Shown one piece after another: positions 10,742 to 14,665 of a stretch of DNA of 64,000 nucleotides; within the stretch, counting starts at the first letter, position 1; every line of letters starts with the position of its first letter. Source of the DNA: an uncultured Gammaproteobacteria bacterium (GTDB lineage: Bacteria > Pseudomonadota > Gammaproteobacteria > UBA9214). The position numbers and the translations under genes are program-made. The stretch covers positions 17,487-81,486 of the forward strand of contig CAWDLS010000001.1 in assembly GCA_963803275.1 (NCBI GenBank), read 5' to 3'. The notes under the pieces were generated by a model. That model saw only the letters and a program-made list of their open reading frames with translations. It was not told where the DNA came from and did not search any database.

Positions 10742-11554
10742 ATGCGATTGACGAGTTTAATCCTGGCCGCCCTGCTGCTGGTTTCCGGCGGGTGCTCCCT
10801 GCTCCCCGACCAGGTCGACAAGACCAAGGACTGGTCCGCCAACCAGCTCTACAGTGCGGCCAAGGATGAGCTGACGCAAAAGAACTACGAACAGGCGATC
10901 AAGTACTTCGAAAGCCTCGAGTCCCGCTACCCGTTCGGCAAGTTTGCCCAGCAGGCACAGCTGGAGATCGCCTACGCCTATTACAAGTTTGATGAACCCG
11001 ACCTGGCACTGGCGGCGGCTGACCGCTTCATCAAGATCTATCCGCGTCACCAGAACGTGGATTATGCCTGGTACCTGAAAGGACTGGTCAACTACAGCCG
11101 CGGGAAGTCGGTGGTCGACCGGTTGCTGCCGCAGGACCCCACCGAGCGCGACACCGTCACCATGCGCACGGCCTATGATGACTTCAACCAGCTCTTGCAA
11201 CGCTACCCGGACAGCATCTACGCCAGGGACGCCGCCCAGCGCATGATTTACCTGCGTAACAGCATGGCGGAGTACGAACTGCATGTGGCCGACTATTACA
11301 TGCGGCGCAAGGCCTATGTCGCGGTCGTCAACCGCTGCAAGTACGTGATCGAGAATTTCCAGCGCACCCCGTCCGTGCCAAACGCACTGGTGTACATGGT
11401 ACGCGCCTACCGGATACTCGGCGCCGATGACATGGCCGCGGATGCACTGAAGGTACTGCGTCTCAACTACCCGCAAAGCCCCGACCTTGCCCTGCTGGAC
11501 GCACCCGGTGGCTACCCGGCCGATCAGTCACCCTCGATCTGGAAGTTCTGGTAG
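10742..11554 (+). CDS. bamD: Outer membrane assembly lipoprotein BamD
   Basis: Lipobox LVSGGC, YPFGKFAQQAQLEIAYAYYK, ADYYMRRKAYVAVVNR; divergent from rluD. Confidence 0.95.
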   Translation: MRLTSLILAALLLVSGGCSLLPDQVDKTKDWSANQLYSAAKDELTQKNYEQAIKYFESLESRYPFGKFAQQAQLEIAYAYYKFDEPDLALAAADRFIKIYPRHQNVDYAWYLKGLVNYSRGKSVVDRLLPQDPTERDTVTMRTAYDDFNQLLQRYPDSIYARDAAQRMIYLRNSMAEYELHVADYYMRRKAYVAVVNRCKYVIENFQRTPSVPNALVYMVRAYRILGADDMAADALKVLRLNYPQSPDLALLDAPGGYPADQSPSIWKFW

Positions 11555-13182
11555 CCGCTGGTGATCGGGTAGCGCCGGTCACGGCCGAATGCGCGCCGCG
11601 AAATGCGTACCCCCGGTGGTGCCTGGCGGCGCTTGTATTCGTTGCGGTCGACCATACCGGCGACACGCGCCACCACCGCGGCATCGAAGCCTTCCGCCAC
11701 GATGCGCTCGACGCTCATGTCCCGCTCGATATAGCGCTCCAGGATCGGGTCCAGCACCTCGTAGGGCGGCAGGCTGTCGGCATCCTTCTGGTCCGGCGCC
11801 AGTTCCGCTGACGGCGGGCGCGCCAGCACGCGTTGCGGTATCACGTCACCCAGGCCGTTGCGGTAGCGTGACAGGCGGTATACCAGCAGTTTCGGTACAT
11901 CCTTGAGCGGTGCGAAGCCGCCCGCCATATCGCCGTACAGGGTGGCGTAGCCGACCGACATCTCGCTCTTGTTGCCCGTCGTCAGCAGGATGCGGCGCTG
12001 CTTGTTCGAGATCGCCATCAGGATGATGCCGCGACAACGGGCCTGGATATTTTCCTCGGTGGTGTCCACGGCACAGCCCTGAAAGACCGGCGCCAGCACC
12101 TCGAGAAAACTGTTGAACGGCCCCTCGATGGAAATTTCCCGGCAGTGCACGCCCAGCGCCGCCGCCTCCGCACGCGCATCCGCGAGACTCATCGCCGCGG
12201 TGTAGCGCGATGGCATCATCACCGCCTCCACCTGCCCCGCCCCGATGGCGTCCACCGCCAGCGCCAGGGTCAACGCCGAATCAATGCCGCCGGACAGGCC
12301 CAGCACCGCGCCCTCGAAGCCGTTCTTGCGGATGTAGTCGCGCACGCCCAGCACCAGCACGTCATAGACCGCCGCCTCCAGCGTCAGGCGCGGTGCACAG
12401 TCGGCGACAGCCGGCTTCGCCTGTTCGCCGGCCGCGATGTCGACGGCATACAGGCCCTCGACGCAGGCCGGCGCATGCTGCGTCAGCTCGCCGTGCCGGT
12501 CAACCACAAACGAACCGCCGTCGAACACCAGTTCATCCTGGCCGCCGACCAGGTTGACGTAAAGAATGGGCAGGTCGTTCTCGCACGCACGCTGCGCCAG
12601 CAACTGCTCGCGTTCGGAACGCTTGCCGGCATGGAACGGCGAGGCGTTGAGATTAACCAGCAGGCGGGCACCCGCCGCCGCCGCCTGCTGCGCCGGGCCG
12701 GCTTGCCAGATGTCCTCGCAGATGGTTATGCCGACCGGGATATCACCGAGCTGCACGACACAAGGCTGGTCGCCAGCGGAAAAATAGCGCTTTTCGTCGA
12801 ACACGCTGTAGTTGGGCAGCAGCTGTTTCCGGTACAGCGCGATGATGCGGCCGTCGCGGATCACCAGCGCGGCGTTGAACAACAGCCCCCCCTCCTGCAG
12901 CGGACTGCCGACGATCGCCGTGATGCCGCTGATCGTGCGACACAGGCGACCAATCGCGACCTGCACGTGTTCCATGAAATGCGGCCTGAACAGCAGGTCC
13001 TCCGGCGGGTAACCGGTCAGCGCCAGCTCCGGGAACACCACGACGGCGGCCCCGAGTCCGTCGCGCGCCTGCACGCAGGCATCGAGTATCCGGTCGGTAT
13101 TGGCCGGGATGGCGCCGACCAGGAAGTCGAGCTGGGCCATGACGATGCGGAGGCCCGGAGTTTGTTGTTTTGTTGGGGTCAT
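11524..13182 (-). CDS. nadE: Glutamine-dependent NAD+ synthetase
   Basis: Nitrilase domain (FPELALTGYPPEDL, LPNYSVFDEKRYF, ICEDIW) plus synthetase domain (GLSGGIDS, ENIQAR, TTGNKSE, NEYKRRQAPPG). Confidence 0.96.
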   Translation of the reverse strand: MTPTKQQTPGLRIVMAQLDFLVGAIPANTDRILDACVQARDGLGAAVVVFPELALTGYPPEDLLFRPHFMEHVQVAIGRLCRTISGITAIVGSPLQEGGLLFNAALVIRDGRIIALYRKQLLPNYSVFDEKRYFSAGDQPCVVQLGDIPVGITICEDIWQAGPAQQAAAAGARLLVNLNASPFHAGKRSEREQLLAQRACENDLPILYVNLVGGQDELVFDGGSFVVDRHGELTQHAPACVEGLYAVDIAAGEQAKPAVADCAPRLTLEAAVYDVLVLGVRDYIRKNGFEGAVLGLSGGIDSALTLALAVDAIGAGQVEAVMMPSRYTAAMSLADARAEAAALGVHCREISIEGPFNSFLEVLAPVFQGCAVDTTEENIQARCRGIILMAISNKQRRILLTTGNKSEMSVGYATLYGDMAGGFAPLKDVPKLLVYRLSRYRNGLGDVIPQRVLARPPSAELAPDQKDADSLPPYEVLDPILERYIERDMSVERIVAEGFDAAVVARVAGMVDRNEYKRRQAPPGVRISRRAFGRDRRYPITSGYQNFQIEGD

Positions 13183-13239
13183 GGTTTATGAGTCCTACAG
13201 CTATAAGGGACTTCATAATTTCGTGATGAACCATCTTTA

Positions 13240-13748
13240 CAGGTTTCGCCCGTGCGGGCGAGGTACTTTCTCTTGCGTGCCCAAGAGAAAGTACCCAAAG
13301 AGAAGGGCACCCGATGCCCGCGCCGGCTAACGCCGGTGCCCTGCGTTCCTCGCCAGGCCGGGGGCGCGCACAACTCGGAGCCGGAACGGGATTGGCTAAT
13401 TCCGTTCCGGCTTGCCTCGAACAGGGTGCGCGCCTTCATCCCGGCCTAGCTGCGGTACTCGGCACGGGCTACGGGGCGAGGGGTGTCAGCGTTTGGTCCC
13501 GTCAGGCGCCGCCGAGCATCGCAGGCGGTTTGGGATGAAGCGAGCCGCCGTGTCGAGCTGGATTTGCTAGCCGCAAGGCGCGGCAAATCCTGCGAGTTCG
13601 GCGAGCGCCCAAACCGGCGAGAAGCGCAGGGAACCCGGTCGGTCATCGCAGATGACCGACCGGGCAAGCCTTCGGGTCCGCCTTTCTTTTGGGTACTTTT
13701 CTTTGGCGGAGCAAAGAAAAGTACCTCGCCCAAGCGAGGCGAAATCTG
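13240..13748. repeat. Structured non-coding inverted doublet: unit A 13240-13476, unit B 13497-13748 in opposite orientation (MITE-like or structured RNA/ssDNA element)
   Basis: The reverse complement of B aligns with A over its full length (CAG.TTTCGCC...GGGCGAGGTACTTT...GTACCCAAA...ACCCG...CCCTGCG.T.CTCGCC...AACTCG...CTCGA...TTCATCCC...CTGCG.T.CTCGGC...ACGGG), with compensatory changes in stems. AT-rich flanks. Confidence 0.88.
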
Positions 13749-13792
13749 CAACAAAATAATAAAATTTGAATAATTCAACTGTTGAAAAAGTA

Positions 13793-14665
13793 TCAACCCA
13801 CCAGTGCCCGCTGCATGGCGACACCGATCTCCGCGGGCGAACGCGCCACGGTGACACCCGCGGCCTCGAGTGCGGCGATCTTCGCCGCCGCCGTACCCTG
13901 GCCGCCGCTGATGATGGCGCCGGCATGACCCATGCGCTTGCCGGGCGGTGCCGTCACGCCGGCGATGTAGGCAACCACCGGCTTGCTGACCCGCGAGCGC
14001 ACGAACTCCGCGGCACGCTCCTCGTCGCTGCCGCCGATCTCGCCGATCATGACGATGCCGCGGGTATCCGGATCGGCCTCGAACAATTGCAGGCAATCGA
14101 TAAAGCCCATGCCGCGGATCGGGTCGCCGCCGATGCCGATACAGGTGCTCTGGCCAAAGCCGCAGCGGCTGGTCTGGAACACCGCCTCGTAGGTCAGCGT
14201 GCCGGAGCGCGACACGATGCCGATGCTGCCGGGCGTGTGGATGACGCCCGGCATGATGCCGATCTTGCAGGCGCCCGGGGTGATGATGCCCGGGCAGTTG
14301 GGCCCGATGAGCCGCGCATGTGTTTCACGCAGTACCGCCTTCACGCGCAGCATATCCAGCACCGGGATGCCTTCCGTGATGCACACGATCAGGCCGATGC
14401 CGGCAGCGGCTGCCTCCAGGATCGCATCGGCCGCGAACGCCGCCGGCACGTAGATCATGGTGGCATCCGCACCCGTTGCACTGACTGCATCCTTCACGGT
14501 ATTGAACACCGGCAACCCGAGATGGGTCTGTCCACCCTTGCCCGGTGTCACGCCGCCGACGAGGCGCGTACCGTAATCCAGCGCCTGTTGCGAATGAAAG
14601 CTGCCCTGCGCGCCGGTGATACCCTGGCAGATAACCCGGGTGTCACTGTCGATGAGCACGCTCAT
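13793..14665 (-). CDS. sucD: Succinyl-CoA synthetase alpha subunit
   Basis: [42 protein letters not shown]. Confidence 0.97.

Follow-up and report, generated by a model that had tools for sequence, protein, structure and literature searches.

The window analyzed here, a stretch of 64,000 nucleotides from an uncultured gammaproteobacterium (contig CAWDLS010000001.1; GTDB lineage UBA9214), carries between nadE and sucD an imperfect palindrome that is composed of two diverged structured units, A and B, joined as a divergent doublet. This doublet is probably (at roughly 0.6) a gene-less dispersed repeat that conserves structure and has the scaffold of the extended form of TwoAYGGAY (RF01731), without both of the AYGGAY hairpins. 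It is classed here as a variant of the TwoAYGGAY-type kind, not as a member of RF01731. The extended form and its divergent pairing are already known from the available part of a preprint (bioRxiv 10.64898/2026.09.22.753630). A preliminary description of this DNA had left the element unassigned; this is superseded, as the scaffold falls with TwoAYGGAY and its extended form, including the divergent doublets.

The doublet in the nadE–sucD gap and its fold

The element lies in the 610-bp gap between the start of nadE (13182) and the stop of sucD (13793), both on the minus strand, and unit A, which lies on the strand of nadE, has its 3′ end (13240) 58 nt ahead of the nadE start codon (Table 1). 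An inverted-repeat search gave three collinear blocks through which units A and B pair: 13256–13306 with 13681–13731 (51 nt, 75%), 13335–13380 with 13590–13635 (46 nt, 74%), and 13434–13463 with 13511–13540 (30 nt, 73%). The first block constitutes terminal inverted repeats, a feature of miniature inverted-repeat transposable elements (MITEs). The units are about 240–250 nt long, and when unit A (minus) is aligned with unit B (plus), 150 of 234 positions are identical (64%). No transposase was found by Pfam in the five adjoining open reading frames scanned, and no target-site duplication was seen at the flanks of the window copy or at six compared sites.

The preliminary description had recognized an inverted doublet of one ~245-nt unit in this gap, with neither a nearby transposase nor an obvious target-site duplication, and the repeat blocks, the alignment, and the Pfam scan bear this out. 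The parts that it had named were all located at matching positions in both units: the motifs GCCGAG-nnn-CGCAG and GGCGAG-nnn-CGCAG, the ATGAAG bulge, the GT(T)CGAG/CGAGTT loop, the closing stems, the GCAA loop, and the stems that differ in sequence and still pair (AGGCCGGG/CCCGGCCT versus CGGTTTGGG/CCCAAACCG).

The folding energy of unit B is −141.1 kcal/mol (z = −7.25; 0 of 200 shuffled sequences were as low), and that of its complement strand is −128.0 kcal/mol (z = −5.05). Covariation was scored for a 38-pair structure in an alignment of 62 non-identical full units (alignment A1). Paired cells account for 93.8% there versus 80.7% in shuffles, and 25 of the 38 pairs vary on both sides. The covariation score is 0.364 as compared with 0.138 for shuffled alignments (0 of 500 were as high), and it is 0.04–0.09 when the partners are displaced by 1–3 columns (the slid control). 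Since the sequences in A1 are related, the shuffle counts are not probabilities, and the slid control is the safer comparison. In the B subfamily (36 B-type units), a compensatory change was found for 27 of 70 predicted pairs. Because the stems covary well past both the shuffled and the slid controls, the single-strand fold is conserved, not the termini alone. Selection on single-stranded structure, which had been proposed at the outset from the covarying stems, is thereby upheld.

The strongest covariation is found in the basal stem (helix 4): all 9 of its pairs vary on both sides, and one of them, as an example, occurs as AU 23, UA 12, GC 11, and CG 3. For the closing stem (helix 1), 4 of 8 pairs vary on both sides, and one pair between motif 1 and motif 2 covaries (CG 36, UA 22). 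The apical hairpin of unit B is flanked by the loop strands GTGTCGAG (13550–13557) and CGAGTT (13593–13598), and its position is that of the AYGGAY hairpins in the Pseudomonas record L055 and in the genome G323. The loop of the variable hairpin P3 is CATGGATG in one relative only (L065, unit 2147–2433; 1 of the 62 units), while GCAG, GAAG, or GAGG is found in the other units; P3 may be a decayed AYGGAY hairpin.

The strand had remained unresolved in the preliminary description. When the sense strand is defined as the one on which the pyrimidine tract precedes the 14-bp hairpin, it is lower in energy in 51 of the 62 units, with a mean gain of 4.9 kcal/mol. G-U cells outnumber A-C cells in the B subfamily (67 vs 26), and the RF01731 matches in relatives fall on the sense strand. 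For these reasons, the evidence leans toward A on the minus strand and B on the plus strand; the earlier doubt is reduced in this way.

The 3′ module and its probable relation to TwoAYGGAY

The 3′ module of each unit consists, in this order, of a pyrimidine tract, a 14-bp pyrimidine/purine hairpin, and a small GC hairpin. The tract is a mirror of the pyrimidine arm of the hairpin: in unit B, TTTCTTTT mirrors the arm TTTTCTTT, and in unit A, TTCTCTTT mirrors the arm TTTCTCTT. Among the A/T-rich perfect hairpins with an upstream 8-nt pyrimidine tract in the DNA examined (n = 97), the mirror is exact (8/8) in 95 copies that represent six haplotypes from several taxa; it is these haplotypes, and not the 95 copies, that count as independent evidence. 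Written as arm and tract, the haplotype TTTTCTTT with TTTCTTTT occurs in the Pasteurella record L076 and in L100, the haplotypes TCTCTTTT with TTTTCTCT and TCTTCTTT with TTTCTTCT in L103, and the haplotype CTTTCTTT with TTTCTTTC in L101 and L102. In A1, the in-register parallel U-A/C-G matches reach 97.6%, while they fall to 65–66% when displaced by one column. To judge from the sequences, the mirror tract could lie along the purine arm in parallel orientation and place T on A and C on G, which is the register of a pyrimidine-motif triple helix. Two other accounts of the upstream tract were rejected: if it were a direct repeat, the offset would have to change from haplotype to haplotype, and Watson–Crick pairing would leave 2–4 mismatches.

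Intrastrand triplex motifs, namely BoxC/PIT/TMECO, are a known class of bacterial repeats that has been linked to genome instability; the pyrimidine-type intrastrand triplexes are possible in RNA, and the purine-type ones are impossible there (available part of PMC4666352). The combination that characterizes Holder classes II/IV, a pyrimidine/purine hairpin with a third tract in Hoogsteen register, is present in the window module by sequence. As far as that part of the source describes them, BoxC/PIT/TMECO are like the module in that three consecutive blocks (a hairpin and a third strand) make up an abundant intergenic repeat tied to rearrangement. The block order of TMECO (class II) is that of the window module read antisense, i.e., pyrimidine arm, loop, purine arm, loop, and purine tract, and the sense strand of the module corresponds to Holder class IV. 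TMECO is, however, G/C-rich, about 35 nt long, and stand-alone, whereas the window module is A/T-rich (seven T.A-T and one C.G-C) and makes up the 3′ portion of a structured unit of 250 nt; neither TTTCTTT nor AAAGAAA appears in the main text of that paper (PMC4666352). As a separate observation, GC-rich hairpins of the form ACCCTCTCCCGC...GCGGGAGAGGGT share the search pattern in many Pseudomonadota genomes and in G323, and their arms are reminiscent of the CCCTCNCCC/GGGNGAGGG blocks found in the BoxC/TMECO triplex motif (PMC4666352).

The literature texts searched hold no account of the A/T-rich module as a triplex, and the figures or supplements of the preprint may show one as a “3′ pseudoknot”. 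A literature search with 11–13-nt terminus strings gave, among the matches listed, only papers that are unrelated by title, none with either 13-nt string. In the non-coding RNAs PAN and MALAT1, the ENE forms a U.A-U triple helix in the major groove close to the 3′ end; the third strand there is the 3′ A-rich tail, which is clamped by a U-rich loop. In the window, by contrast, a 5′ pyrimidine tract would lie on the purine arm of a hairpin, and the likeness could concern a possible working mode only, not membership.

A TwoAYGGAY-type kinship is proposed because this 3′ module is common to RF01731-positive units, where it is found on the same strand. In the Pseudomonas record L055, the module (792–820) is located 77 nt downstream of an RF01731 match above the gathering score (898–1001), both on the minus strand; short GATCT/GCTGT/GCTTT repeats precede the module, and a GMTBT(T) array is visible. 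In G323 (genus g30), 7 of 12 scanned hairpin loci have RF01731 above the gathering score 70–170 nt upstream. An Aeromonas unit with GGAT-loop hairpins aligns to positions 148–253 of the profile (the 3′ 105 positions; E 3e-16). The exact pattern of the 3′ module was found in 28 stretches of GTDB species genomes: 21 of them are by title uncultured Gammaproteobacteria/Ectothiorhodospiraceae metagenome-assembled genomes (MAGs), and the other 7 come from Pseudomonas paraversuta, a Betaproteobacteria MAG, a Clostridiales MAG, and one Peptococcaceae MAG (four stretches). In the 5′ domain, the basal stem covaries and its flanking motifs resemble those of L055 and G323 by eye, and the profile hidden Markov model (HMM) fails to align this part to Pseudomonas. 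A single long GCAA-loop hairpin replaces the two AYGGAY hairpins in position. The AYGGAY hexamer occurs anywhere in 5 of the 62 family units, and within a hairpin loop in L065 only.

In an Rfam search of the window, no family reached its gathering score. RF01731 gave no match in the genome of the window at E ≤ 1, and the control was likewise silent in all 14 genomes of that search. The best match, to the rpsB small RNA (RF01815) at 13216–13326 on the minus strand, over the 3′ module of A, was taken as a chance likeness of the hairpin (27.8 bits against a cut-off of 40; E 0.0022).

According to the portion available of its source (Weinberg et al. 2010, PMC2864571), TwoAYGGAY is a structured element that occurs in multiple intergenic copies in Gammaproteobacteria and Clostridiales. 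The available part of the preprint describes, for Pseudomonadota, an extended form with three added hairpins, a longer basal stem, a 3′ pseudoknot, and upstream GMTBT(T) repeats. Divergent doublets are enriched among its copies (2,164 of 3,166; 68.4%), the copy number is very variable with a “mobile-element-like” expansion, 16,086 matches are given for Pseudomonas alone, REP arrays are cited as adjoining TwoAYGGAY in SBW25, and a Csr/Rsm decoy role is proposed for the loops (bioRxiv 10.64898/2026.09.22.753630). RF01731-positive units share their 3′ module and its strand with the window units, which differ from them in having no AYGGAY loops, no match to the model, and a single apical hairpin instead of two. 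With the extended form, so far as described there, the window units share the extra 3′ hairpins, the divergent doublets, a copy number that differs widely among relatives, and a mobile-like spread without a known enzyme; their covarying basal stem may correspond to the long basal stem of that form. The 3′ pseudoknot of the preprint may correspond to the mirror tract on the hairpin. The differences from that description are the following: the pairs in this genus are divergent in 44 of 44 cases (vs 68.4%), the spacer is about 20 nt (vs a median of 249 bp), the window has a 21-nt spacer instead of a 5′ GMTBT(T) array and has no GGA loops, and its halves belong to two old subtypes.

Table 1. Coordinates of the nadE–sucD element, its parts, and neighboring features in the window
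Feature	Position	Strand	Remarks
nadE	11524–13182	minus	Pfam
Whole element	13240–13748	unstranded	509-bp imperfect palindrome; divergent doublet of two diverged units
Unit A	13240–13476	minus	A-type subfamily; 5′ end 13476, 3′ end 13240
A small GC hairpin and tail AACCTG	13240–13261	minus	left terminus
A 14-bp hairpin	13262–13295	minus	pyrimidine and purine arms
A pyrimidine tract TTCTCTTT	13297–13304	minus	mirror of A hairpin arm TTTCTCTT
Central spacer	13477–13497	unstranded	21 nt; separates both 5′ ends
Unit B	13498–13748	plus	B-type subfamily; 3′ end toward sucD stop codon
B closing stem, 5′ strand CCCGTCAGGC	13498–13507	plus	helix 1; pairs with 13668–13676 GCCTTCGGG
B conserved motif 1 GCCGAGCATCGCAGG	13511–13525	plus	faces motif 2 at 13617–13631 GCGAGAAGCGCAGGG
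B basal stem, 5′ strand CGGTTTGGG	13526–13534	plus	helix 4; pairs with 13608–13616 CCCAAACCG
B apical hairpin	13558–13592	plus	GCAA loop
B variable hairpin P3	13634–13664	plus	14-bp perfect stem
B pyrimidine tract TTTCTTTT	13683–13690	plus	mirror of hairpin pyrimidine arm; candidate Hoogsteen third strand
B 14-bp hairpin	13692–13725	plus	helix 5; pyrimidine 5′ arm, purine 3′ arm
B small GC hairpin and tail AATCTG	13725–13748	plus	right terminus
Sigma-70-like promoter match	13756–13785	minus	outside the element, reading into it; 9/12 positions, consensus match only
sucD	13793–14665	minus	Pfam

Copies, gain and loss, and candidate partners

With a profile of A and B, five full units and one partial unit were found in the genome of the window (3.73 Mb). 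The full units are the window pair, another pair on contig 3, and a solitary unit on contig 1; the partial one is a 3′ fragment on contig 14. At E ≤ 0.001, unit B has matches in 16 of 24 other sampled genomes of the genus and in 0 of the 16 genomes that represent other families of the class. The number of matches per congener ranges from 0 to more than 20, and many of them are at contig ends. The 62-unit profile revealed a full-length doublet in L100, which belongs to another family of the class (E 1e-27 and 3e-20), and partial matches in Aeromonas, Pasteurella, Burkholderia, a Betaproteobacteria MAG, and others. The preliminary suggestion of a mobile-type element with further copies agrees with these counts. 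Phage records gave no match to the element; 16 plasmid records match the hairpin alone (query positions 180–243), and it is never annotated in them.

Several related or neighboring repeats were seen in passing. In a Burkholderia cepacia plasmid (L077, 3036–3147), an Rfam match to the Burkholderia small RNA candidate Bp1_684 (RF02421, 118.8 bits) begins within the 3′ arm of the pyrimidine/purine hairpin, and Bp1_684 may be part of a related repeat. One Peptococcaceae MAG (L056, L057, L070, and L074) has four repeat copies of 150–250 nt with the same 3′ module; their conservation extends beyond CCTG, and two of the four are directly upstream of gene starts. A different short repeat of 50–130 nt, often more than 90% identical, is present in high copy in the genus; it was seen at about 2430–2560 of L003, and G441, G442, G445, and G447 have many short matches. 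Other palindromic families at intergenic sites of the genus are AAAAGGGGTCAGACCCCTTTT hairpins and elements with the ends CCACAGAG...CTCTGTGG (G000 contig 1, 425350–425470; L194, L199, and L200).

Pairs of non-identical units no more than 400 bp apart were divergent in all 44 cases in the genus: 33 are A+B, 2 are B+B, 1 is A+A, and 8 are unclear, while 13 units are single. The 44 pairs include the same site in different genomes and are not 44 independent events. Because all 44 pairs are divergent and 33 of them are A+B, the doublet seems to be inherited and spread as a whole.

The gene order sucD–nadE is kept in all 28 loci that show both genes (among 30 loci). In distant congeners, the gap is 40–380 bp and contains no unit; such empty sites in relatives had been named as a check in the preliminary description. 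The doublet is present in the gap of five close genomes, in two arrangements (compared in stretches L109–L112 from G447, G002, G442, and G441, respectively): the A-type half adjoins nadE in G000 and G447, and the B-type half does so in G441, G442, and G002. The left hairpin of G447 is a chimera that combines an A-type pyrimidine arm with a B-type purine arm. The two arrangements and this chimera may reflect inversion or exchange within the hairpin loop. Several units occupy the gap in G445 and G449, and a collapsed 3′ module alone remains in G446.

Six sites that are occupied in relatives were compared with G000, where two have only a palindrome, one has a shorter version, one has a half, and two are empty. 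The palindrome is 28 bp long and corresponds to two joined termini, TTTCGCCC-GACA-GGGCGAAACCTG (G000 contig 6); a near-identical one lies on contig 1. Among the 27 anchored congener loci of the contig-6 site, the pair occurs in 3 and the palindrome in G000, and 23 contain neither of them. Because of these 23 loci, the palindrome is best read as the remnant of a deletion between both terminal small hairpins; the view that it is an older target hairpin was rejected, since 23 of the 27 loci lack it and it stands alone only in G000. For the other two loci of the genome of the window, no clean empty site was found in the five closest congeners, which show a full or partial unit or a larger deletion throughout. 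The element behaves like unstable or mobile DNA, as judged from its presence and absence at orthologous sites.

A partner enzyme was sought among the RAYT/IS200 transposases. None of the 10 places with Y1_Tnp in the genome of the window has a unit within 2 kb. Y1_Tnp occurs in 33 of 37 congeners but does not follow the distribution of the repeat: the repeat-rich genomes G441 and G012 have 0 Y1_Tnp, and congeners free of the repeat have 1–3. RAYT/IS200 was therefore rejected as the partner, as it neither flanks the repeat nor correlates with it across the 37 congeners, and the HUH/RAYT partner considered in the preliminary description is not supported. As a side observation, the Y1_Tnp matches of G000 are on contigs 1, 6, 9, and 12, and several are in open frames of 237–255 residues, which exceed the usual length of IS200 transposases. 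An ISAs1 parent was also rejected, with PF13808 above the cut-off in 0 of 37 genomes of the genus. No autonomous parent with the same ends was found in the genome of the window by end motifs or HMM, in a search that systematically covered pairs up to 400 bp apart. REPINs are inverted pairs of ~25-nt REPs that are spread by RAYT transposases. The doublet resembles them as an intergenic, gene-less inverted pair of hairpin-bearing repeats that forms the spreading unit, but its units are about 250 nt long with covarying internal structure, and Y1_Tnp genes neither flank nor track it.

As for transcription, five RNA-library runs contained no more than 0.09 of the sampled words, and four of these runs, compared at 85% likeness, gave family-like contigs on the element and none on its unique flanks. 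Terminator-like matches were found on the inward-reading strands at 13243–13264 (plus) and 13745–13723 (minus), the latter being the GC hairpin with the T-rich arm, located 48 nt past the sucD stop. Such matches reflect agreement with a consensus only, and 3 were observed versus 1.3 expected in shuffles.

Alternative explanations and biological meaning

The placement with TwoAYGGAY and the RNA interpretation have to be weighed against several findings. RF01731 gives no match in 13100–13900 even at E ≤ 10 (gathering score, 43 bits), and AYGGAY is absent from A and B on both strands. Homology of the 5′ domain would depend on motif order by eye and on the Aeromonas intermediate, and the 62-unit sequence HMM reaches Pseudomonas over the 3′ module alone. 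The mirror rule is broken by two copies, 1757–2047 of L002, which looks recombinant, and L114, an internal-deletion derivative; most of the 95 mirror copies belong to two haplotypes (58 and 30 sources); and the rule suits a DNA triplex on either strand equally well as an RNA triplex. The evidence for the strand is non-independent, as it is drawn from related copies. In the searches described above, neither a mobilizing enzyme, a target duplication, nor an autonomous parent was found. The RNA-library contigs give neither strand nor ends, may contain DNA, and are not evidence of a transcript, and a consensus search found no promoter-like site inside the element.

Some of these points would be expected of a purely DNA-level fold-back element, MITE- or REPIN-like, whose fold would be needed in single-stranded DNA for enzyme recognition or for palindrome-driven gain and loss, with RNA being irrelevant. 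The long inverted termini, the presence and absence at orthologous sites, where the boundaries fall exactly on the small terminal hairpin, the internal-deletion and chimeric derivatives, the range from 0 to more than 20 matches per congener, the contigs that often end in the repeat, and the lack of an internal promoter match are consistent with such an element, and the mirror tract also suits a class II or IV DNA intrastrand triplex as described in the available part of PMC4666352. We nevertheless regard it as rather unlikely: the excess of G-U over A-C cells and the better sense strand in 51 of the 62 units argue for a strand-specific, RNA-type fold, the relatives bear an Rfam RNA motif on the same strand, and neither a target duplication nor a partner enzyme was found, with Y1_Tnp not tracking the repeat and PF13808 in 0 of 37 genomes. 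The inward-read termini, each a GC hairpin followed by a T-rich run, and the short sucD–nadE gap of distant congeners (only 40–110 bp) could also be explained if the element were a cis-acting, two-faced terminator or insulator that ends the sucCD transcript and uncouples nadE. Such a role is improbable, since the matches are to a consensus only (3 against 1.3 expected in shuffles), copies also occur beside gene starts (e.g., at the contig-6 site), and 250 nt of covarying structure, the mirror tract, and the A+B pairing would be superfluous for a terminator; in addition, the GC-rich BoxC triplex motif, of different sequence, showed no terminator activity in earlier work cited by PMC4666352, as given in its available part.

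A self-cleaving ribozyme or retro-mobile RNA, with the divergent doublet arising from snap-back second-strand synthesis, is a far less probable source. The 5′-to-5′ layout, with end-to-end distances of −17 to +144 nt between the matched parts, would suit snap-back copying, which however predicts identical halves, and 33 of the 44 pairs are A+B at about 64% identity. No Rfam ribozyme family matched at E ≤ 10, contrary to the ribozyme family suggested in the preliminary description, and no link to a reverse transcriptase turned up, although none was searched for.

Under the preferred interpretation as a TwoAYGGAY-type scaffold, each unit would be read on the strand that places its 3′ end outward, A on minus and B on plus. 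The unit would fold as a closed multi-helix domain with the closing stem, the facing GCCGAG/GCGAG...GCAGG strands, the covarying basal stem, and the variable apical hairpin; the 3′ module would follow, with the pyrimidine tract as the third strand on the 14-bp hairpin and the small GC hairpin after it. The 509-bp doublet would spread and persist as one piece. Long perfect palindromes are unstable, and this might be why the halves stay diverged. Loss would occur by deletion between the two terminal small hairpins. The selected molecule would be an RNA with its 3′ end capped by a U.A-U/C+.G-C triple helix, and the AYGGAY-less variant would probably not be a Csr/Rsm decoy, because it has no GGA loops.

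A more tentative proposal, possible but doubtful at present, is that the 3′ module, not the AYGGAY loops, is the part conserved across phyla, that it forms a three-way-covarying triplex acting as a cap or as an enzyme recognition structure, and that the scaffold spreads without a Csr/Rsm role. If so, a triplex of seven U.A-U and one C+.G-C would protect a bacterial non-coding RNA against exonucleases at its 3′ end; alternatively, the triplex would be recognized by a host enzyme that copies the element. The RNA interpretation would predict discrete outward transcripts with ends near GGGCGAAAC.

TwoAYGGAY ranks among the most abundant structured repeats of bacteria that still lack an explanation, and the Csr/Rsm decoy is the sole functional idea so far. 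Three features seem to deserve further attention: a scaffold that persists although the name-giving loops are lost, the mirror rule, which points to a triple helix, and the 28-bp footprints. The 28-bp palindromes would be a simple marker of former copies, by which gain and loss could be dated on a tree. If the more tentative proposal holds, the AYGGAY-less A+B doublets of this genus would show that the scaffold can spread and be under selection without a Csr/Rsm-binding role. As the scaffold, the divergent pairing, and the copy turnover were kept after the loss of the loops, the scaffold itself may be what is selected or copied.

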